In this document: piece by piece, positions 1 through 9,197 of the stretch | How positions within the stretch are numbered: position 1 is the first letter of the stretch | How the letters are laid out: each line of letters opens with the position of its first letter | IMG/VR virus record: IMGVR_UViG_3300009788_000100 | Source: a virus | Lineage: Duplodnaviria > Heunggongvirae > Uroviricota > Caudoviricetes | Direction: 5' to 3' (one strand) | DNA length: 10,164 bases | Translations under genes and position numbers: made by a program | Notes under the pieces: model-generated | Databases searched by the model: none | What the model saw: only the letters and a program-made list of their open reading frames with translations | Told to the model about the DNA's origin: nothing

Positions 1-630
1 GTAGATGCCTGCTATAGTATCTGACCCCATGAAGTTAACTAAGTGCGCAGCCCCGCCAATCATTGCTGATTCCTGGGAAGATACCCCCCGGCTTCCAAAG
101 TCATGTAGTTTGAAGGGCAGTTCAGCCGCAGCATTATCTGAGGTTTCCTTTAGGTAATGGTAGATCATTTGCTTGATGTACCACGATTGGGTGGCTACCG
201 TGATGGGGTACCATACGCGCAGAAGAAGGGTCTCTATGTAGGACACCAACCAGAAAACTTTAGGGTCAGTGGACTCCACTGACATGAGAATGTTATGCGT
301 CGGTACAACGGTTCCTTCCGGTACAGCCCGTATTCGAATAGGAAGCTTACCCTCTAGTTCCTCTGCGATGTACATCCATCCTTCGATGTTGAACGGGGTT
401 CCGTACAGTTTCGCGAAATCAGCTGTTTCGAGAACGTCTTCAACGGTCACGCGCTGGGATAGATACCGTTTTAAGTAGTACTGAAGCCCAAAGAAAACTG
501 TAAAGTCATACCTTCCGCCGGGTCTAGATTCCAGATAGCTAAACATCTTCGTAGTGTTCGGCGGATATTGTGAGAAGTGGCTAAACTTATATCCGTCTGT
601 ATCTAGTACTAGTGAAAGCAAATAGTTCAT
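1..630 (-). CDS. nadV: Nicotinamide phosphoribosyltransferase (NAMPT/NadV), N-terminal 210 aa; gene continues beyond the left edge
   Basis: Not in the ORF track; translated by hand from ATG 630 (SD AAGGAG at 643-638): MNYLLSLVLDTDGYKFSHFSQYPP...FFGLQYYLKRYL...LPIRIRAVPEGTVVP...WLVSYIETLLLRVWYPITVAT...KLHDFGSRGVSSQESAMIGGAAHLVNFMGSDTIAGIY. The motifs TDxYKxSH, AVPEG, LHDFGxRG and AHLVNFxG(S/T)DT are NAMPT hallmarks. Confidence 0.95.
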   Translation of the reverse strand, partial: MNYLLSLVLDTDGYKFSHFSQYPPNTTKMFSYLESRPGGRYDFTVFFGLQYYLKRYLSQRVTVEDVLETADFAKLYGTPFNIEGWMYIAEELEGKLPIRIRAVPEGTVVPTHNILMSVESTDPKVFWLVSYIETLLLRVWYPITVATQSWYIKQMIYHYLKETSDNAAAELPFKLHDFGSRGVSSQESAMIGGAAHLVNFMGSDTIAGIY

Positions 631-633
631 GGT

Positions 634-675
634 TCATCTCCTTGATGAGTTGTTTCGGGGACTTCCCTAGTCCCC
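634..675 (-). promoter_or_regulatory. Two tandem GGA-pentaloop hairpins in the nadV leader
   Basis: mRNA sense: GGGGACU-AGGGA-AGUCCCC (675-657) and UCAUC-AAGGA-GAUGA (648-634). The second loop is the nadV Shine-Dalgarno. Confidence 0.5.
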
Positions 676-1239
676 TAATAGATCTAAATTTTTAGCTACC
701 CTGCGTACCCAGTTTTTCCATTCTTCTAAGCCCATAACCGACTTGGAGGTATTACAGATCTTACAGCACGGCACGCAGTTGTTCTCCAAGTAACCCTTGC
801 TGTTGTCCACGCGGTCTATACCGTTATACATTATTTTACGGTCGCCCGATTTGCGTTTATACACAGTGCGCTCTGTACTGGGAAGAGTCCCGCAGTAGTA
901 ACAATTTTTGCCCACTTGTTGGCAGAAAAAGTCGAAGCTAAGATCAAATAAATACCCACGTATAGCCGCTTGCTTTTTATACTTTCTATACAACTCTCGC
1001 TTAGGCCCGCGGTTATCCGGTTGGCGGCGCCCCGGCCGCGGGCTTGAGTACCCGCATGAGCAAGACTGGTGTTTACCAGAACGGAGTGCGTAACTCCGGG
1101 CATAGGTTTCCCCTCCGCAGGCACACCTACAAAAATAAGCTTTCTTATCTTTATCTAGGTACACAACAGTAAGGCGACCAAAAACTTCGCCTGGCTTTAT
1201 AGGGTTTGTCTTTGCGATGACTCTCTCCCTCCTGCCCAT
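667..1239 (-). CDS. Free-standing HNH (His-Cys/Zn) homing endonuclease
   Basis: N-terminal GEVFGRLTV...CRCACG...LRSGKHQSCSC module, CYYC, and C-terminal GIDRVDNSKGYLENNCVPCCKICNTSK, typical of phage HNH endonucleases. Confidence 0.85.
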   Translation of the reverse strand: MGRRERVIAKTNPIKPGEVFGRLTVVYLDKDKKAYFCRCACGGETYARSYALRSGKHQSCSCGYSSPRPGRRQPDNRGPKRELYRKYKKQAAIRGYLFDLSFDFFCQQVGKNCYYCGTLPSTERTVYKRKSGDRKIMYNGIDRVDNSKGYLENNCVPCCKICNTSKSVMGLEEWKNWVRRVAKNLDLLGD

Positions 1240-1267
1240 TAGGTTCAGTTCCCTTCCTGGGAACCTA
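1240..1267 (-). promoter_or_regulatory. Hairpin sequestering the HNH ribosome-binding region
   Basis: mRNA UAGGUUCCCAGGAAGGGAACUGAACCUA-AUG has two alternative stems, GUUCCC/GGGAAC (loop AGGAA) or UAGGUUC/GAACCUA. Both enclose the purine-rich AGGAAGGG. Confidence 0.45.
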
Positions 1268-1269
1268 CA

Positions 1270-1833
1270 TTATAGTTTATATGCTGTTTCAAGAGCAGTA
1301 ATAATCTGGTCTTTATTATCCCCTGTGTATCGTGTGCTTCTTATGTGGTTGTGGTTCTTATTCCACGGTTGGTCTATGATAATGACCTGCCCTTCGGGCC
1401 AAGCTTCGAGCCAGGGTAGGTAGTAATCAGGCCAGTCTTCTACTAATAACGCACCACGAACTAAACTCTTATCCTCCGAGATAGTCATCTTTACTTCGGG
1501 GACCCACATGTTCCGCCACTCCAGCTTCTCCGACCAAGCATTTGGTGTGTCTTTTGGGGCTTTAGTCAGTATATGTCGTGTGAACCCTGCCGCTTTCGCC
1601 ATGTTGAACACGTCGAAGCCAGGTCCGTGGGGTGTGAGGTCGCGCCAGAAGCCAGGCGTACGCTGGATTTCTTTACGGCGCCGGTATAGGTGGTCGTTCT
1701 GACCAAGAGTGTCTTCAAATGTAACACTAGGCTCACCCGGGCTCTTCAAGAGGTTTAATCTTTCTAGCATTGCCGGCATGTACCTGACCAGGGTAGAATC
1801 CAAGTCAAATAGAGCTATCTTTTGTTCTTTCAT
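1270..1833 (-). CDS. HAD-superfamily 5'(3')-deoxyribonucleotidase (NT5C-like)
   Basis: Motif I FDLDSTL, PGFWRDL, ILTK, EKLEW, LLVEDWP and QPWN match the NT5C-type pattern. SD GGAGG upstream. Confidence 0.85.
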   Translation of the reverse strand: MKEQKIALFDLDSTLVRYMPAMLERLNLLKSPGEPSVTFEDTLGQNDHLYRRRKEIQRTPGFWRDLTPHGPGFDVFNMAKAAGFTRHILTKAPKDTPNAWSEKLEWRNMWVPEVKMTISEDKSLVRGALLVEDWPDYYLPWLEAWPEGQVIIIDQPWNKNHNHIRSTRYTGDNKDQIITALETAYKL

Positions 1834-1834
1834 T

Positions 1835-2887
1835 TTATACCTCCGGTAGTCTATTCGTCAGTATGCTATCGTTTAGTAGCTCTCTGCGCGTACCGAGCGT
1901 CGGGATGTTGGGATTGTGTTTGTGGCTGGTGGCCTTCTCGACATCATGCGCCGACTTGATAAAGGCGTCAACCTCTTCCTCCGAGTACTCAGAGAAGATC
2001 TGCCGTTCTACACAACGGTCTTCAATAATTTCTTTGGCTCGCGAGTGGGACATTCCAAAGCTAACACCAGTCGCTAGCTCTAACCGAACAGCATCCATAG
2101 CACGGGACATTCGCTCGATAGTGCCGACAGAAAGATAGCCCCCAGTTGTTAGGTTGAGCTTCGAATAGGTCCAGCCCACACCGTAGGTACTTTTGAGCTC
2201 GTCCTCGTCGTTATGCCCCACCTCTCCAACTCCATGCAGATCCGGAGAGGGAGCGGCCACGAGGATGCTGACTGGTACTCCAAGACCAAGACCGAGCTGA
2301 AGTACTTCGCCCTTGCTGAGCATGGCAATAGGATTGGTATCTACCTCACCGTCCCCTCCCTTCTGGTAGAAGCGGAGCCAACGGTCTTCACACTCGTTGC
2401 CGGTGCCGTGACGTATCCCATTCCCCATAAGACGGTTCATAAACCTTCCAATGGGTGCTCGTATGCAGGAACGGAACGAACCCAAGATGGTGGGATCTGC
2501 TTCTATGCGTTCCAGGATGCTATCCTTTGCATCTATATACTTGTTGTAGTTCTTCTCACCGCTAGAGGCCAGCTCTTGCGCTGCTATAGTGGTAATTTCA
2601 ACTAGGTTGTCGAAGTCAACGCCCAGGTCTAGGACAGCTAACTTAACACTGAACTTAGCAGCAACCTCCTCTGCTCTCTTCTCCGAATCTTCGGAGGAAT
2701 CAATGTCAGAGTAGACCGCAGTGATGTTTTCTGGGCCCACGGCTTTTGCCAGAAGGCCCAGCATAACAGCAGAATCCACTCCACCAGAGACATCTAGCTG
2801 GGCTCGGGGAATACCAGCTTTCTCGTGGTAGTTGCGAATGGCGGTTACTCTGTTTTCTATAAGTTTATCTACGTCGAGTACAGGCAT
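1835..2887 (-). CDS. nadE: NH3-dependent NAD+ synthetase-like protein (NadE family, no glutaminase domain)
   Basis: P-loop SGGVDS, GTGNECE, FYQKGGDGEVDTNPIAMLSKGEV, PSPDL and DEDEL. True start is probably ATG 2887 (SD GGAGG overlapping the nadM stop) rather than TTG 2899. Confidence 0.9.
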   Translation of the reverse strand: MPVLDVDKLIENRVTAIRNYHEKAGIPRAQLDVSGGVDSAVMLGLLAKAVGPENITAVYSDIDSSEDSEKRAEEVAAKFSVKLAVLDLGVDFDNLVEITTIAAQELASSGEKNYNKYIDAKDSILERIEADPTILGSFRSCIRAPIGRFMNRLMGNGIRHGTGNECEDRWLRFYQKGGDGEVDTNPIAMLSKGEVLQLGLGLGVPVSILVAAPSPDLHGVGEVGHNDEDELKSTYGVGWTYSKLNLTTGGYLSVGTIERMSRAMDAVRLELATGVSFGMSHSRAKEIIEDRCVERQIFSEYSEEEVDAFIKSAHDVEKATSHKHNPNIPTLGTRRELLNDSILTNRLPEV

Positions 2888-2889
2888 GG

Positions 2890-3945
2890 CTACCTCCAAT
2901 CCGAACGAATAAAGTAGTTGATTATGTGGAGGTGGTCTGAGAAGAAGTTCTCCTCATGTAGGGCTAAGTCACTGACTGGTAACCAGAAGGCCTCAGCTGC
3001 GTCGTCACCCCCTTTAACCGTCGGGAGGGGCCCGAGCCTATCGATCTGCATAAAGAAGGCATGCGTGATTGTACGGCCTCTCATGTCCCTTGAGGGGTGG
3101 TCGAAGACGTGGTCGCCCTTGAGCGCTCTCTTTAGCTCAGACTTAGGGAACCGGATATCGGTTTCCTCCTTCAGCTCTTCCATACAAGAATCAAAGATCT
3201 TTGTTCCTGTTTTAAGGAAGCCCCCGGGCAGTGCGAACATTCCCTTCCCCGGGTTTAGCTTACGTTTAACTAGGAGAACGTGTCCTGCTTGGATGATAAC
3301 AGCATCGGTTGTTACAAAGACCGGGGGGAAAGGTGCCGACTCCCAGCGCTTTTTATACTTTGTGAGATACGCCTGCTCCCTGACTAAATCCTCGAAGCGA
3401 CTCTCTTTGCTGTAGCCCTCCAGGTGTTTAAATACCTCAGGAGGGAGAATGCGAAAATTATTGAAGCTTGCCTTTCCTTTGGAAAAGAAGCCCTCCCCCA
3501 ACGAGAAAAGCTCTTCCCGTATATCAGTGGCGTTGGCGTCGAAGTAGTTAGGTTCCGACACTAGTTTCCACTGCGGAAAGAGCTTTAGGTAGTATGAGCT
3601 ATCGTCCTTAAAGTGTCCGATAATCTTGACATTTTTGGAGTCACCCACCTCTTGAGAGATGGCATTCTGGATTCCGGTGAGCCAAGTAAGGTCACTATAC
3701 AAATAATCCCGAGCTGGAGCGAAACTTACTCGGTCCAAGTACTCGGGAGGCAGCGCAGCGCGAATCATTTCGACTCGCTCTTCATATGTCCAAGGGTTGC
3801 GTAGACTTCTAGCGGCCCGGTAGCTTCCTACAACTATGACCAGGCGCTCCGCTTCTTCTTCCAGTGCGTTAGTGACTATCTTTAAGTGCGCTTTATGAAA
3901 AGGTTGGAATCGCCCGATGAATACACAGTATTCTGCTTTTGACAT
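2890..3945 (-). CDS. nadM: Bifunctional NMN adenylyltransferase / Nudix hydrolase (NadM-Nudix, NatV-like)
   Basis: [52 protein letters not shown], then [10 protein letters not shown]...LPGGF...EELKEET...RGRTITHAF...[10 protein letters not shown]...FFSDHLHII. Start ATG 3945 has SD AAGGAG at 3957-3952. Confidence 0.93.
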
Positions 3946-3964
3946 TCTTGTCTCCTTTGTTTCA

Positions 3965-3981
3965 GCCATCTCCCTGATGGC
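3965..3981 (-). promoter_or_regulatory. GGA-pentaloop hairpin at the predicted 5' end of the NAD operon mRNA
   Basis: GCCAUC-AGGGA-GAUGGC, located between the -10 box and the nadM SD. Confidence 0.5.
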
Positions 3982-3991
3982 CTACACTATT

Positions 3992-4020
3992 AATATAAGA
4001 TAACTCCGGCTGTTTGTCAG
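3992..4020 (-). promoter_or_regulatory. Sigma70-type promoter upstream of the NAD operon
   Basis: -35 CTGACA (4020-4015), 17-nt spacer, -10 TATATT (3997-3992). Each box matches consensus 5/6. Confidence 0.65.
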
Positions 4021-4472
4021 TCTAGTTTGAAGGGCAGCTTTGCTTGGCCCACCCCCCTTAAACTTGGCCCCCGCTCGCGCTCCTCCATCTCTCCCCACTC
4101 TTCTACGAGCTCGGCTTCTTCCCTAACATACTTGGTTATCTTTAGGGAGGCGCGGACTAGCTCACAGCCGCAGCGAACATGGTGGTCTCCGTAGAGGCTG
4201 AGGCGCTTCCAACCCCCGTTGAAAATTTCGTCGGCGCAGGCGAAGGAACATACGATGGCCGAAAAGGTGTTCCCTCGTCCGCTTCCAAGCTTGGTCGTGG
4301 CGACCTTGTCGAAGGTTCCAGACATCTCCGCCAGGTGCTGATCATTGCAGAACGCACCCATCTGGAAAAGTTTCTCGCAGCTATCACACTTGAGGGCCCG
4401 TAACTCTGGCTTGACCTCAACGGTTTGGGTCCTCTTCTTCCGAATGCTCCTCTTGAGGATTACTGTACTCAT
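4017..4472 (-). CDS. Hypothetical protein with CxxC...CSxxC (FCS/TRASH-like) zinc-binding motif
   Basis: LKCDSCEKLF...IVCSFACA; fits the packed minus-strand array. Confidence 0.6.
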   Translation of the reverse strand: MSTVILKRSIRKKRTQTVEVKPELRALKCDSCEKLFQMGAFCNDQHLAEMSGTFDKVATTKLGSGRGNTFSAIVCSFACADEIFNGGWKRLSLYGDHHVRCGCELVRASLKITKYVREEAELVEEWGEMEERERGPSLRGVGQAKLPFKLD

Positions 4473-4497
4473 CCCTAATCCTGTCCGCTCTTATTCA

Positions 4498-4752
4498 TCA
4501 CTGCGCCTCTGTATTGACAGTGGCGGCGAGGGCGTCAAGTAGGGGAGTGGTGTTCGGTATTTCCTCACCACTAAATGTTTTCAGGAGTTCCCGGTAGTTC
4601 TTGTCTTTACGAGTGTAGAAAACATAGTTGTCGCCTTCAATGTACTCGAACTTAATCTTTGGAACGATGACTCCGAGGCGCTGAGCGAACCCCTCAGCAC
4701 TGAAGGCAGTGTGGAACGTGAAGACTGTGGGAAGATTTACATTAGTAATCAT
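4498..4752 (-). CDS. Hypothetical protein (84 aa)
   Basis: ATG 3 nt after the upstream TAG; no recognisable motif. Confidence 0.55.
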   Translation of the reverse strand: MITNVNLPTVFTFHTAFSAEGFAQRLGVIVPKIKFEYIEGDNYVFYTRKDKNYRELLKTFSGEEIPNTTPLLDALAATVNTEAQ

Positions 4753-4755
4753 AGT

Positions 4756-5058
4756 CTATGTCTTTCTTTTAAAGTTAAATTTTTCTCGGATCGTTTTAAG
4801 AAATAGGGGCTCGTGACTTGATCTAATACCACAATAGGAACCCACCGCTCCGCCCAAAAGGTCAGGAAGCATAAGCCAGTGAGAGTCGGCAACAACCCAA
4901 ATAACAGAGAGCCACCCAATAGCGGCTAAAGTCACAGCAAGAATTGCCCCTCGTATAGGTTTGTTTGTTTCCCTTGCTTTTTGCCAGAACACGGACAGCC
5001 AGTCACTGCTTGTTGAAAACAGGAAGATGGCTAAAGCTTGCAGCGTAAAATAAAACAT
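4756..5058 (-). CDS. Small membrane protein (about 3 hydrophobic segments)
   Basis: FYFTLQALAIFLFS, GAILAVTLAAIGWLSVIWVV, WLMLPDLLGGAVGSYCGI; basic C-terminal tail. Confidence 0.65.
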   Translation of the reverse strand: MFYFTLQALAIFLFSTSSDWLSVFWQKARETNKPIRGAILAVTLAAIGWLSVIWVVADSHWLMLPDLLGGAVGSYCGIRSSHEPLFLKTIREKFNFKRKT

Positions 5059-5060
5059 CT

Positions 5061-5876
5061 TTAACCCAGACTGTTGGCGAGGTACATAAACGCGGTGCGG
5101 GTAGTAGTAGGAACAGCATAAGCTTGTTCTAGTTTTCTAACTTTGTTTATAATCTTTAATTTTTCTCCGCCTAGTACGGCAAAGCCGCAGCTCATGCGAT
5201 AGCTACTAGCTTGGGGAACTAAGTCGAGCAACAGTCTTATGTTTTTAAGCTGTTCGGTATCGCTACGTTCTTCCCGTTTGTAAGTTTTCCTAGGCAGGCC
5301 ATTTCGAAAGTGGCGCTTACAAGCCAGAGAGCCATCTTTATTCCAGTAAGTCGCCCAACCGTGGGGCCTCCCGTTGATTAGATACAAGCGACAGCGCTTC
5401 TTCTGATTAGCCCAGTAGTAAGTTGTATACCCGGTTAGTTGGCCTGCTTTATAGTAACAAGTTTCTGTAAGCTGTCTGTTGTGGTAGAACTTCCACAAAC
5501 CACAACGTTTACCCTTCTCGTACTGCCCCTTAATCCAGCCGGTAAGTTGGGAATCTCCGTGGTGTTTATTATCTTGCTTGTCGATTCGACTTATTCGTTT
5601 ACCGGAGGAAAACCCGAATATCTCTATGCGTCTTAGCTTTCCGAGCTTCGTTACCTTCTTTATTATATTTCCACCATCATACGTACCGATAGTTGTGCGC
5701 CCGTTCTTTTTGATCTCTATATCAGATACTATGTAACTCGAGTCCCAACTGGGTGTAATAGTAACTGTAACGAGCGCCCCCTCGATGTATCCAGCTTTTA
5801 CCCTAGATAGGGGGGTTTCGGTACATAGAGGTAAGGTGTCCCAGTCTTCCGAGCTCGTTTTCTGTGGAAGTTGCAT
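5061..5876 (-). CDS. MORN-like (YwqK-type) beta-hairpin repeat protein
   Basis: Repeats GQYEKGKRCGLWKFY / CYYKAGQLTGYTTYYW / YLINGRPHGWATYWNKDG; TAATG overlap with the upstream gene. Confidence 0.7.
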   Translation of the reverse strand: MQLPQKTSSEDWDTLPLCTETPLSRVKAGYIEGALVTVTITPSWDSSYIVSDIEIKKNGRTTIGTYDGGNIIKKVTKLGKLRRIEIFGFSSGKRISRIDKQDNKHHGDSQLTGWIKGQYEKGKRCGLWKFYHNRQLTETCYYKAGQLTGYTTYYWANQKKRCRLYLINGRPHGWATYWNKDGSLACKRHFRNGLPRKTYKREERSDTEQLKNIRLLLDLVPQASSYRMSCGFAVLGGEKLKIINKVRKLEQAYAVPTTTRTAFMYLANSLG

Positions 5877-6781
5877 TAGAAGTTATTCCTGCGTAGAAAA
5901 CTTGCCAGGTTTTTGTTTATTTTCGGCGGCTGTTTTTGTTCTTCAAGTCCGAGCATTTGTCCTATAGCTTTGGTATAGCGCTCCAGCGTAGTAGCGTGCT
6001 CATCCGTGAGGCAGGGAGTGGAGTTTATCTCTAAAACTAGGGGGCTGCCCTCGGGGGGCACCATGATATCTACAGCTCCCCAGTGTAGACCAAACTCAGC
6101 TATTGTTTGTTTACCCACTTGACGAAGGCTGGGTAGAACAGGGTCCTTGTGGTCTTTGGGGTAACCGAAGAACCAGCCGCTGTCGTGGTTCTTAACAATA
6201 GCGCTGTGCTGAACTCCGTCGCCTGGAAGCTTTTCCGAAATTTTTATCACCCTGTAGTCCTTGGCCTCAAGGCCGCCAAGCTGAGGGTTAGGAGCCATCA
6301 CATGAACGCGAAATTCTCGTGTATTGCGAATAAACTTTAAGAAGTGGGTTGCCCCCCTCGAAGTCGCTCTGTTGAGTTCTTGCAAAGTTTTACAATACCA
6401 CAACCCTCTTCCCCGCATATGGTGAGTTGTTCTCGCGATGACGGGGAGGTCGTGCTTTGAAACATTACTTGCCCTTAGCCACAACTGGGGAGCAGGAATA
6501 CCTAGCTGTTTAAATCGAATGCGCGCACCGCGCTTGTTTGAGCTACGAGCAACGGCTTCTGGGATGTTAAGGATATTGCTGTCATTAGCGTTGATTGGTT
6601 TATACCACCCAACATTAATAATGTGGTCGAATTTTTTTCCTTCTCTATAAAGTTTGTAAAGTCTTTCCTCTCGCCCCTTTAGGATAAGGTGACCGGCACT
6701 GGAAAATACTCTGGCTAAGTTATTTCCTAAAACCCTGCCAGACTGCAGGCCATTTTTTGCGTAGAGGATAAACAACTTCAT
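5876..6781 (-). CDS. ATP-grasp ligase (RimK-like / phage-type amidoligase)
   Basis: SSNKRGARIRFKQLGIPAP, LPVIAR, GRGLWYC, REFRVHV, KNHDSGWFF, FGLHWGAVDI, VLEINSTPCL. Start is probably ATG 6781 (ATGA overlap with the upstream stop). Confidence 0.8.
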   Translation of the reverse strand: MKLFILYAKNGLQSGRVLGNNLARVFSSAGHLILKGREERLYKLYREGKKFDHIINVGWYKPINANDSNILNIPEAVARSSNKRGARIRFKQLGIPAPQLWLRASNVSKHDLPVIARTTHHMRGRGLWYCKTLQELNRATSRGATHFLKFIRNTREFRVHVMAPNPQLGGLEAKDYRVIKISEKLPGDGVQHSAIVKNHDSGWFFGYPKDHKDPVLPSLRQVGKQTIAEFGLHWGAVDIMVPPEGSPLVLEINSTPCLTDEHATTLERYTKAIGQMLGLEEQKQPPKINKNLASFLRRNNF

Positions 6782-7551
6782 AAGTAACTCCGGTATTCTT
6801 CTGCGTTGGAGCAATAGAGATGTGCTGACCTGTCGGTGCCCTTGTATAGGCTAACATTGACTGCGCCCGGTTTAGTGTCTTCCTCCCAGTTATCCCAGTC
6901 GTTTGGTACTTCGTGCATGTCGCATATTGTTTGCATTCCCGCCGAAGCAAAAGGGTACGCTAAACAGTCGTGCATGGTGTCCTTTTCTATTCCTCGGGCA
7001 GCGCTAAAGCGGATACCGGTTACGTCACAACCCTTCAGCTTAGCTCCATAGAATTTAGTACCATGGTTGACGATAACATTTTCTAAAAGGGTTCCTTCAA
7101 TTAAAGCGTTCGAGAGGTTAGCGTTGCCAAAATTAGATCCTGACAAATGGCTAACAGTAATAAAGGCATTCTCCAGAAGAGCATTAGTAAAATCTACGGT
7201 ACCTATGCACCCATAGATCTGCAAGCTTGAAACATCGGCGCCATTAAACTCAGTTTTGTGGAAGGTACACTCGATAAAATGTAGTACGTCCGCGCCGATG
7301 TTGTCAAAACAAACTTTAGAAAGGTCACACCGGTTGAAGGTGGTGCCGCTGAAATCAGCAAGTGAAAAGTCCCAACCCTTTAACTTACAGTTTAAAAACT
7401 CACAGTCCTCAAAATACCCGCCGTCAAGGTGGCGTGCATTAGATTCGTTAATTTCTAAGCCTTCTATTCGTAGCCCTGCCCAACGCTGTCCCTCGAACGA
7501 TAAGCCTTGTTGGCACTGGTAGAAAAACTCTAACTCTCTACCTTTTTTCAC
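6778..7551 (-). CDS. Pentapeptide-repeat protein
   Basis: Long 5-residue periodicity (FEDCE FLNCK LKGWD FSLAD FSGTT FNRCD LSKVC ... LSGSN FGNAN LSNAL IEGTL LENVI); GTG start with GGAG SD. Confidence 0.88.
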   Translation of the reverse strand: MKKGRELEFFYQCQQGLSFEGQRWAGLRIEGLEINESNARHLDGGYFEDCEFLNCKLKGWDFSLADFSGTTFNRCDLSKVCFDNIGADVLHFIECTFHKTEFNGADVSSLQIYGCIGTVDFTNALLENAFITVSHLSGSNFGNANLSNALIEGTLLENVIVNHGTKFYGAKLKGCDVTGIRFSAARGIEKDTMHDCLAYPFASAGMQTICDMHEVPNDWDNWEEDTKPGAVNVSLYKGTDRSAHLYCSNAEEYRSYL

Positions 7552-8254
7552 TCAAGCTCCCCCGGAATTCATCAATGTTGGAGCACTCTAACACGGCACG
7601 TTCACCAAAGCCCCACAAGTGTTTACGGTAGTGGGTGGCAGCGGCTTCTCCGTAGTACCCTCCGCAGCTCCATTGTTCGTCGGCATCATCAAGGTGGCCG
7701 TATTTCTCCGCTGTTTCCTTCTTGGACTTTACAACCTGCTGGGCGGGGGAACGGTAGTGTTTAACAGTTTTTAGGGGTTTGGGGTCTACTAGTTCCCTTA
7801 GAGATGTTTTTATTTTTGACGGCGGAAGGGGGATTGGGTTATTCCCAACCTTCGAGTACTTAGGCGCTACTGTATAAGTGCCCCTTTCAAGGTCTAAGAT
7901 AGCCGAAATCCCTTTACTATTGCCGAGCAGTCCCTGGCAAGTCATCCCGAAATTACAGGTTGTTAAACCCTCTGTTGCCTCGAAATCAGTCCCATAAAAA
8001 CTACAACTGGAAAACTCGCATTTCCGGAAGCGCACCTTCGAGAGAAAAGCGTTATCGAAGTTACAGGCACTGAACTTGGTGTTTGTTATTAACATCTCAC
8101 GCATATCAGCGGTCACGAAGTCACAGTTGTAGTAAACACCCCCTGTGATTCGAGTTCCAACCATACGCGCTAGAAAGAAAGAAGCGTGGCGGTAGTCCCC
8201 GGTGAAGGTGTGCCCCACGGGGAAACGTTTTCGGCTGTGATTAGTATTGCTCAT
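7538..8254 (-). CDS. Pentapeptide-repeat protein with basic C-terminal extension
   Basis: YYNCD FVTAD MREML ITNTK FSACN FDNAF LSKVR FRKCE FSSCS FYGTD. Start is uncertain: ATG 8254 preferred over TTG 8341; neither has a clear SD. Confidence 0.75.
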   Translation of the reverse strand: MSNTNHSRKRFPVGHTFTGDYRHASFFLARMVGTRITGGVYYNCDFVTADMREMLITNTKFSACNFDNAFLSKVRFRKCEFSSCSFYGTDFEATEGLTTCNFGMTCQGLLGNSKGISAILDLERGTYTVAPKYSKVGNNPIPLPPSKIKTSLRELVDPKPLKTVKHYRSPAQQVVKSKKETAEKYGHLDDADEQWSCGGYYGEAAATHYRKHLWGFGERAVLECSNIDEFRGSLSEKR

Positions 8255-8271
8255 GGCTTTGTATTTAAAAG

Positions 8272-8859
8272 TTGAACGTCGGCCCCCCGGGGGCAGGCAA
8301 TGGTAACTTTCGGTATGGCCGTCCGGCGGCTTTATTAGCAATTCTCGTGGAGATACGACTGTTATCGATTAGACTGGCACTTGGACAGAATTACTGAGAG
8401 TTCTACCTTAGCTTTGTGTAACCATTGTTTCTCAGGGGGAGTAGTTCGCCCTCCGCCCGGCCAAGTATTGGGCAAGGTTTTCCTCGGTTGAGAACTAATG
8501 TTTCACAAACACAGCAGCTTCGCTCTAAGTAATTGCTGTTTAGTGCTTCACTAACATTCCCTCTAACTTCATCAAAAAAAAACGATGTCGTTAGGTTGCT
8601 TAGCCCTACAGTACATACACTGCCTGGAGGCTGCTTTTCGGTTTATGCTAAAGCATACCCCGGAAAGCATCCCATTTCCTTTTCTTAATAAAATTGCCAG
8701 GAGCGCCATGCGAGCTTGTTAGCATACAACACAAGCAGCATCTCCTTCGAGGATATGACAACACTTTCCCTTCCCGCGCTGTACATACACGTTCCAGTTG
8801 GTGTTAGCTAATCGCCGAAGTTACACATCTAACCAACCATAAAGGCGGCCGACGTTCAA
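8272..8859 (-). ncRNA. Candidate large structured ncRNA (~590 nt), unidentified
   Basis: Nested end-to-end complementarity: 8859-8847/8284-8272 (13 bp perfect), 8828-8815/8313-8300, 8814-8808/8372-8366 and 8798-8794/8377-8373, plus many local hairpins. No intact ORF of 60 aa or more inside. Confidence 0.5.
8272..8859. repeat. 13-bp perfect inverted repeat TTGAACGTCGGCC bounding a 588-bp segment
   Basis: Plus strand ttgaacgtcggcc at 8272-8284 and ggccgacgttcaa at 8847-8859. Confidence 0.95.
8403..8670 (-). pseudogene. Possible frameshifted CxxC...CxxC small protein (split at a T9 run)
   Basis: ATG 8670 with AGGA SD gives 32 aa ending TTT TTT TGA. The +1 frame continues 56 aa to TAG 8403. Overlaps the ncRNA candidate, so it may be spurious. 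Confidence 0.25.
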
Positions 8860-8862
8860 AAT

Positions 8863-9150
8863 TGGGGGCGCGGCGGGGATTTGAACCCCGCTCCACCGCA
8901 TTGTGGCTACAACAGCCAATGTTAACTAGGTCCGCACTCTGAAAATTTGTTCTCTTGTTACCGTTTTGGAGGCGGTATTCAAGTATTCCTTTTTAACAGA
9001 AGGGTCTCTAGTTTAGCCATTGGGGTGTAGCACGCGGTAAGACATATTCAGAGGGGACGGACATGCAGTCCCAATTGATTAGTGCCCTGAGGTACTCACG
9101 GAGAGGACGTGAGCAGCTCAACCTCTATAACCAGGCATGAGGTACGCGCC
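8863..9150 (-). ncRNA. tRNA-like RNA (288 nt) with ~230-nt internal expansion
   Basis: 5' GGCGCG-UA-CCUC-AUGCCUGGUUAUA-GAGG (acceptor strand plus D arm). 3' GCGGGG-UUCAAAU-CCCCGC-CGCGCC-C-CCA (T arm, complementary acceptor strand, encoded CCA). Confidence 0.55.
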
Positions 9151-9183
9151 GGGGAGATTCCACATACGAAGTGGTCACTCCCC
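9151..9183 (-). other. GC-rich hairpin immediately 5' of the tRNA-like RNA
   Basis: GGGGAG-UGA-CCAC-UUCGUAU-GUGG-AAU-CUCCCC ends exactly at the first G of the acceptor stem. No U-tract, so not called a terminator. Confidence 0.55.
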
Positions 9184-9197
9184 CCCTTCAACCTTTT

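Follow-up and report, generated by a model that had tools for sequence, protein, structure and literature searches.

Gene Content of the NAD+ Module

The DNA analyzed in this study, referred to as the window in the following, comprises 10,164 nucleotides (nt) of the IMG/VR virus record IMGVR_UViG_3300009788_000100 (Caudoviricetes) and harbors a row of genes predicted to function in the synthesis of nicotinamide adenine dinucleotide (NAD+). In the direction of reading, the row consists of nadM-Nudix, nadE, a HAD nucleotidase-like gene, an HNH-type gene, and the beginning of nadV, the intergenic gaps being 2, 1, 30, and 36 nt, respectively. An earlier interpretation of this DNA, obtained without database searches and termed the sequence-only reading here, had described five co-oriented genes at these places, and all five were confirmed on the minus strand by protein family matches. 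The minus strand is also the location of every long reading frame in the window.

The nadM-Nudix gene (2890–3945, minus strand) encodes 351 amino acids (aa) when read from its probable start at 3945, and its product matched NF003791 (5e-121) as well as PF01467 and PF00293. It is followed by nadE (1835–2887, minus strand), encoding a single-domain, ammonia-type NadE of 350 aa with a PF02540 match at 5e-20 and an SGGVDS PP-loop. The nadV gene for a nicotinamide phosphoribosyltransferase (NAMPT) is represented by its first 210 codons (1–630, minus strand), for which matches to PF18127 (3e-28), PF04095 (2e-8), and NF006629 (2e-86) were obtained.

NadV and NadM as a NARP2-Type Pair

The NAD+ reconstitution pathway NARP2 consists of Nampt and Nmnat and has been described to overcome the NAD+-depleting defenses Thoeris, DSR, and SIR2-HerA (Osterman et al., 10.1101/2024.02.11.579819). 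Counterparts of both proteins are encoded in one co-oriented phage gene row in the window. The nadV gene is truncated by the window start; on an identical contig (L001:12258–13682), its full product comprises 474 aa, matches the bacterial NAMPT 7YQO at 2e-161, and keeps the histidine of the AEHST motif. Asp204 of NadV (motif GSDT, codon at nt 21–19) aligned with D219 of the human NAMPT chain 3DGR (motif GTDT), so that the aspartate which the sequence-only reading had regarded as the equivalent of human D219 is indeed retained. The distance from nadM to the downstream, co-oriented nadV is approximately 2.3 kb, and NadM-Nudix, a predicted bifunctional NMN adenylyltransferase/Nudix hydrolase, showed end-to-end matches to the Synechocystis protein 2QJO (2e-98) and the Francisella protein 2QJT (1e-68). 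An Adps (PRPS-like) partner, representing the marker of NARP1, was not found among the called genes within 10 kb on either side. In agreement with the earlier claim of a NARP2-type locus, the NAMPT-clade NadV with its nicotinamide-reading aspartate and the same-strand NadM-Nudix are best regarded, as judged from these matches, as a true NARP2-type pair to which NadE was added. The module differs from NARP2 in that NadE is encoded between the two core genes, an arrangement that recurs in six lineages.

Recurrence of the NadM–NadE–NadV Trio

A search for co-occurrence of nadV, nadM, and nadE had been suggested as a check on the sequence-only reading. The neighborhoods of the closest NadE relatives were read, and 190 loci were scanned with the window proteins. 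In total, 967 NadE relatives were recovered from a large protein collection, the closest of them being 57–65% identical over the full length. The trio was found in the same order and on one strand in six lineages, represented by the window (L001–L005) and the contigs L030, L031/L108 (one contig), L032, L109, and L189. Identities to the window proteins among these lineages ranged between 57% and 65% for NadE, 58% and 67% for NadM, and 67% and 68% for NadV. The genes located between the trio members vary among the lineages and include HNH genes in several of them. In a maximum-likelihood tree calculated for 94 NadE sequences, all six trio NadEs were placed in a single clade of 12 rows (SH-aLRT 96), and this phage NadE clade contained zero sequences from metagenome-assembled genomes (MAGs) or isolates. 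NadE thus proved to be a recurrent addition to the pair, provided by members of one NadE clade. A scan of viral contigs with the single NadE protein returned no relative; the relatives were found by an alignment-based scan.

A further trio was encountered among deposited phages. NAMPT was also present in two of the 12 deposited NadE-bearing phage genomes checked, namely the megaphage LR756502, in which the NadE and NAMPT genes lie far apart, and the cultured Xanthomonas phage X1 (OQ427096.1). The annotated cluster of X1 is composed of a 2OG oxygenase, an NAD(+) synthase, two hypothetical proteins, an NMNAT, another hypothetical protein, and a NAMPT; as in the window, NadE, NadM-Nudix, and NAMPT are co-oriented, in this case within 6 kb. 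In contrast to the window, NadE is the first of the three genes in X1 and represents a 276-aa short form. Because the X1 NadE is an unrelated short form with 27% identity to the window NadE, the trio was assembled at least twice, independently. In X1 (L191:4151–5710), 3 nt separate the end of the 2OG-Fe(II) oxygenase gene from the start of the NadE gene.

Detailed inspection of the NadM proteins revealed a further difference from NARP2. The window NadM features the motif HKAH instead of HxGH, and in its Nudix box, the first Glu and the Arg are missing (3154–3897). The NadE-linked NadMs of all six lineages read HxAH. An association of this variant with NadE linkage as such was considered and rejected, since the X1 NadM keeps the canonical motif (HLGH). 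The first Glu and the Arg of the Nudix box were lost in the window, L030, and L031, and the box is canonical in L032, L109, L189, X1, 2QJO, and 2QJT. As deduced from these residues, ADP-ribose hydrolase activity may be weakened in one NadM subclade, to which the window belongs.

Apart from HNH genes, further frames interrupt individual trios: a NADAR protein (8444–8917) and small frames are interleaved in the L030 trio, and an ADP-ribosylglycohydrolase gene (7130–8014) in that of L189.

Subfamily and Predicted Activity of NadE

The window NadE exceeded the PF02540 cut-off clearly (72 versus 21 bits) and falls into a separate subfamily, about 335 aa in length, with more than 100 invariant columns and the SGGVDS PP-loop. 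An AlphaFold2 (AF2) model built on the family alignment (pLDDT 84.5, pTM 0.87) was compared with known structures by means of Foldseek, and the top matches were NH3-dependent NadE structures with a probability of 1.00 (2E18, 1XNG, and 3FIU). The best folds represent the single-domain, ammonia-dependent NadEs of Pyrococcus and Helicobacter together with the nicotinamide mononucleotide (NMN) synthetase of Francisella.

This last match raises the question of which intermediate is amidated. In the first scenario, NadE would amidate nicotinate adenine dinucleotide (NaAD) like an ordinary NAD synthetase. Alternatively, it could act as a Francisella-type NMN synthetase, converting nicotinate mononucleotide (NaMN) to NMN, which would then be adenylated by NadM; a phage equipped in this way would turn host NaMN into NAD+ without host NadD and would reverse the deamidation of NMN by PncC. 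It has been reported that NadM can be partnered by an NAD synthetase as well as by an NMN synthetase and that Francisella pairs its NMN-synthetase NadE with NadM where NadD is missing (PMC3376133). The window resembles Francisella tularensis in the pairing of a single-domain NadE with NadM-Nudix and in the similarity of its NadE fold to 3FIU. Moreover, the NadE gene starts 2 nt past the NadM stop codon, and 3FIU is the second-best PDB sequence match (1e-9) in addition to being a top fold match. However, 2E18 and 1XNG match the window NadE equally well or better.

The cellular relatives of the protein argue in another direction. Members of the subfamily occur in isolates and MAGs of Nannocystaceae (Enhygromyxa and Plesiocystis) and Planctomycetota, and five such genomes (Enhygromyxa, Plesiocystis, a Nannocystaceae isolate, and two Planctomycetota) were compared. 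The subfamily NadE was the sole full NAD_synthase match in all five, and neither a fused glutamine-dependent NadE nor a NadM-type adenylyltransferase or NAMPT was found in any of them. NadD-like genes were present in each genome and were clear in the two Planctomycetota. Hence, the NadE subfamily goes with NadD and not with NadM in cells, which is the inverse of the Francisella signature. Furthermore, 96 columns show a conservation of at least 90% among 68 cellular members; 93 of them are kept in the phage clade, and no clade-specific replacements were detected at any of the 96, so that the alignment gives no apparent sign of a substrate change in the phage enzymes. Since the cellular subfamily is the sole NadE beside NadD and without NadM, and since substitutions suggestive of a specificity shift are missing, we infer that the window NadE is an ordinary ammonia-dependent NAD synthetase amidating NaAD. 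This activity is favored over NMN synthesis of the Francisella type, which is considered unlikely.

Comparison with Known NAD+ Gene Sets

Bacterial anti-phage immunity commonly ends in the depletion of NAD+, and the rebuilding of NAD+ by phages has become an active field (NARP1, NARP2, NARP3, and extended NARP1). NadV/NatV of Vibrio phage KVP40 is reportedly of the NARP2 type (Lee et al. 2017). NARP3 is composed of PnuC and NadR (PMC13464706), and extended NARP1 adds the phosphatase Adpp (Osterman et al., 10.64898/2026.01.28.702374); both NARP3 and the Adpp phosphatase of extended NARP1 were rejected as the identity of the locus. The module is similar to extended NARP1 in that a core NAD+ reconstitution pair is accompanied by one accessory enzyme, which would widen the range of usable substrates. 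In contrast, the core of extended NARP1 is Adps/Namat, its accessory enzyme is another one, and its function was proven experimentally, whereas that of the window module is predicted. NadE is mentioned neither in the papers on NARP2, NARP3, and extended NARP1 nor in the survey by Iyer et al. (PMC9503650).

Phage-encoded NadE as such has been described before. Clusters of pncB, nadD, and nadE were reported for NAD-jumbo phages, e.g., Kuafu_71 (Li et al., 2024, PMC11662467), and in snow viromes, nadE was abundant among the viral genes, together with NAMPT, nadM, and nadR (PMC11097641). The window shares with these Preiss–Handler clusters a phage NadE within an NAD synthesis gene cluster, but the partners are NadV and NadM, and the phage lacks a complete nicotinate arm of its own in this region: PncA, PncB, and NadD were not detected among the called genes within 10 kb of the module, and the sole phosphoribosyltransferase is a true NAMPT. 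The same NadE subfamily of about 335 aa was also found in huge phages from IMG/VR, some of them complete with terminal repeats, where it occurs beside PncB-like, NadD-like, and NrtR genes and without NAMPT. As deduced from these neighbors, the NadE context in the huge phages corresponds to the nicotinate route of the published Preiss–Handler type. In two of the contigs (L010:8500–15329 and L014:8535–18041), the gene immediately before NadE encodes a strongly diverged NAPRTase-like protein. An NrtR-type regulator is encoded nearby in both contigs, being of the Nudix type in L010, where genes for a NadD-like cytidylyltransferase and an ADP-ribosylglycohydrolase are located close by as well. Considering the published phage nadE genes and NAD clusters (PMC11662467, PMC11097641) and the already annotated trio of phage X1, the novelty implied by the sequence-only reading had to be lowered.

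Proposed Pathway and Its Significance

We propose with moderate confidence that the module represents a NARP2 core combined with an ordinary, NaAD-amidating NadE of the phage clade, which would catalyze the last step of both an amidated and a deamidated arm. NadV would convert nicotinamide and phosphoribosyl pyrophosphate (PRPP) to NMN, from which NadM-Nudix would form NAD+, and NadE would convert NaAD to NAD+ using ATP and NH3. Because PncA, PncB, and NadD are missing within 10 kb, NadE would have to use deamidated intermediates made by the host, which agrees with the proposal of the sequence-only reading. The host NaAD would stem from de novo NaMN, from nicotinamide via PncA and then PncB, or from NMN via PncC, and the step from NaMN to NaAD could be performed by host NadD, or by NadM if this enzyme also accepts NaMN. 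In this way, the phage would control the last step of both routes, and pyridine leaking from the NadV/NadM arm would still become NAD+. The likely benefit would be that NAD+ is kept up during infection, including infection of hosts with NAD+-depleting defenses.

Several observations weigh against this proposal. The window NadE scored below every NCBIfam equivalog cut-off, missing TIGR00552 by 0.05 bits (63.6 versus 63.65) and NF010587 (86 versus 255) and NF002048 (63 versus 313) by far. With a TM score of 0.83 (on target length), the NMN synthetase of Francisella (3FIU) ranks with the best folds, and its activity and that of NAD synthetases are not told apart by the fold search. The NadM relatives with solved structures are bacterial NadMs that effectively use NMN (PMC3376133), which would fit a partner resembling the Francisella NMN synthetase. 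In the three Myxococcota genomes compared, the NadD matches remained below the family cut-off (61–78 versus 112 bits). Finally, neither NadM nor NadV was found within 8 kb of NadE in two members of the phage NadE clade with good flanks (L188 and L190), and the linkage of NadE to NadM/NadV is for this reason strong, but not absolute.

One of these two members differs in length as well: the phage-clade NadE of L188 (8001–9569) carries a C-terminal extension of about 170 residues, amounting to 522 aa in total. L188 is a 137-kb contig that was binned as a Sulfurovum MAG; it looks phage-like, with many small family-less frames and a DNA methylase.

The module could also be seen as a general auxiliary metabolic island unrelated to counter-defense, supplying NAD+ for replication in slow, nutrient-poor subsurface hosts, with NadE being one more host-derived NAD gene. 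This explanation is compatible with all observations: large phages encode NAD-consuming enzymes in addition to varied sets of NAD synthesis genes (PMC11662467, PMC11097641), genes for thymidylate synthase and DHFR adjoin the module, some contigs of the NadE clade lack NadV and NadM nearby, and the matching DNA originates from subsurface metagenomes. In contrast, NARP2 genes were shown to overcome NAD+-depleting defenses (10.1101/2024.02.11.579819), and genes for ADP-ribose processing occur among the trio genes (NADAR in L030 and the ADP-ribosylglycohydrolase in L189). A purely metabolic role is regarded as unlikely; it should be noted that it and a role in counter-defense are not mutually exclusive.

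A more far-reaching, and rather doubtful, extension would be that host PncA and PncC drain the NARP2 route and that phages responded at least twice, independently, by acquiring a NadE beside NadM and NadV. Provided that NadM accepts both mononucleotides or that NadE acts on NaMN, a dual-entry NAD+ pathway independent of host NadD would result, which, if true, would represent a third layer of the NAD+ arms race. As judged from its genes, the locus represents a modest variation on an established phage strategy, namely a NARP2 pair with a recurrent, clade-specific NadE of predicted benefit. Independent assembly of the trio with NadEs of two unrelated types would demonstrate that phages often cannot rely on the nicotinamide route alone, and it suggests that either deamidation by the host or the last amidation step is a bottleneck whose removal may be worth its cost to phages. 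The cultured Xanthomonas phage X1 makes the NadE hypothesis directly testable. If NadE adds nothing, the locus would simply extend the range of NAD gene combinations seen in large phages.

The HNH and HAD Genes of the Module

The sequence-only reading had listed the HNH and HAD genes among the co-oriented genes of the operon; neither was supported as a part of the pathway. The free-standing HNH-type homing endonuclease gene (667–1239, minus strand) encodes 190 aa matching the PHROG families HNH, endonuclease, and endonuclease VII at 4e-14 to 3e-11, without a Pfam match. It is absent from the short contigs L004 and L005, which are 99.7% identical to the window on the nucleotide level from nadM through the HAD gene, up to position 1244. 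As determined by blastn, the identity breaks at approximately position 1244, five bases before the HNH start, and past this junction, nadV of L004 and L005 is about 70% identical on the nucleotide level and 84% on the protein level. In L031, L109, L032, and L189, HNH homologues occupy different intergenic positions within the module, L109 having two copies. Because the near-identical contigs L004 and L005 lack the gene and the mosaic breaks at its edge, the HNH gene is a mobile insert between the HAD gene and nadV, probably a selfish homing endonuclease gene, and not a part of the pathway. The break pattern is as would be expected of homing with co-conversion, or of recombination at the site.

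The junction on the 3' side of the HAD stop codon (1244–1269, minus strand) comprises the mosaic breakpoint, as seen in the alignment and by blastn, and a hairpin (GGTTCCC/GGGAACT, 1247–1265), which is also present in the contigs without the HNH gene. Another hairpin (GGGGACT/AGTCCCC, 640–660) follows the HNH stop codon.

The HAD gene (1270–1833, minus strand) encodes an NT5C-family 5'-nucleotidase-like protein of 187 aa with matches to PF06941 (6e-8; 33.2 bits versus a cut-off of 24.8) and phrog_420 (2e-15), motif I being DLDST at residues 10–14. In the ESM Atlas, the protein is closest to clusters of viral NT5C families, relatives among deposited phages were restricted to two huge uncultured genomes, and the PDB contained no sequence match. 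The gene is adjacent to the NadE/NadV module only in the window lineage and near NadE in L190, where an ortholog with 45% identity is located two genes after NadE. Weaker orthologs (39% and 36%) were detected 7–8 kb from NadE in L032 and L020. In L031, featuring the closest gene order, the position of the HAD gene is taken by a 184-aa gene, which was rejected as an equivalent, its sequence being unrelated. As suggested by its distance from NadE in two contigs and its replacement in the syntenic L031, the HAD gene is only loosely linked to the module and should not be counted as part of the pathway. This putative nucleotidase may act on NMN or NaMN, but a function as a deoxynucleotidase alongside thymidylate synthase and DHFR is no less probable.

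Phage Nature of the Locus

Megablast of the whole window against deposited phages returned no match, and virion genes were found neither in the window nor within 10 kb. Together with the native occurrence of the NadE subfamily in Myxococcota and Planctomycetota, the missing virion genes would be in accordance with cellular DNA, or a non-viral mobile element, carrying ordinary host salvage genes. However, the gene row is dense and co-oriented, and four of its 11 genes have no Pfam match. The PHROG matches in the window include a phage-type sigma factor, the homing endonuclease gene is polymorphic, and the phage NadE clade is free of MAG and isolate rows. Furthermore, sister contigs carry genes for an endolysin-type peptidase, Thg1, endonuclease VII, and GIY-YIG proteins, and the thymidylate synthase and DHFR genes adjoin the NAD module. 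Considering these features, a cellular or non-viral origin is very improbable. The sequence runs matching the window were two DNA runs from subsurface metagenomes. With a small residual doubt, the module can be assigned to a large, uncultured phage of subsurface origin, supporting the view of the sequence-only reading that the locus is of phage origin and not an ordinary bacterial chromosome region.

Gene Starts, Transcription, and Upstream Genes

The true start of NadE is the methionine of the conserved MPVL sequence (2887) and not the upstream TTG at 2899. The open frame of NadM extends from 2890 to 3969, with an in-frame ATG at 3969 and a second Met at 3945. The second Met is most likely the start, because AAGGAG is located 6 nt before this ATG and related proteins begin there.

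A sigma-70-like promoter candidate (CTGACA-17-TATATT, 3992–4020, minus strand) with 10 of 12 consensus matches is located in the gap 5' of nadM. In the window, ten promoter-like matches were found compared to 9.3 expected from shuffled sequence, and the terminator scan of the window likewise remained at chance level. On the identical contig, genes for a sigma factor and an RNA polymerase of the phage were seen. Since promoter-like matches occur at chance level and the phage has its own sigma factor and RNA polymerase, the sequence at 4020–3992 is regarded as a promoter candidate. Transcription of the module from this single candidate promoter is possible. The nadM gene is preceded upstream by seven further co-oriented, equally tight genes, reaching up to 8341.

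These seven genes (4017–8341) encode a Cys-rich protein of 151 aa, three proteins of 84, 100, and 271 aa without family assignment, a RimK-like ATP-grasp protein, and two pentapeptide-repeat proteins. Between this row and the sigma factor gene, 856 nt (8342–9197) are devoid of long reading frames. The order of the genes for the ATP-grasp protein, the pentapeptide-repeat pair, and the sigma factor is kept in L031, and the 100- and 84-aa proteins are kept there as well, being encoded downstream of nadV.

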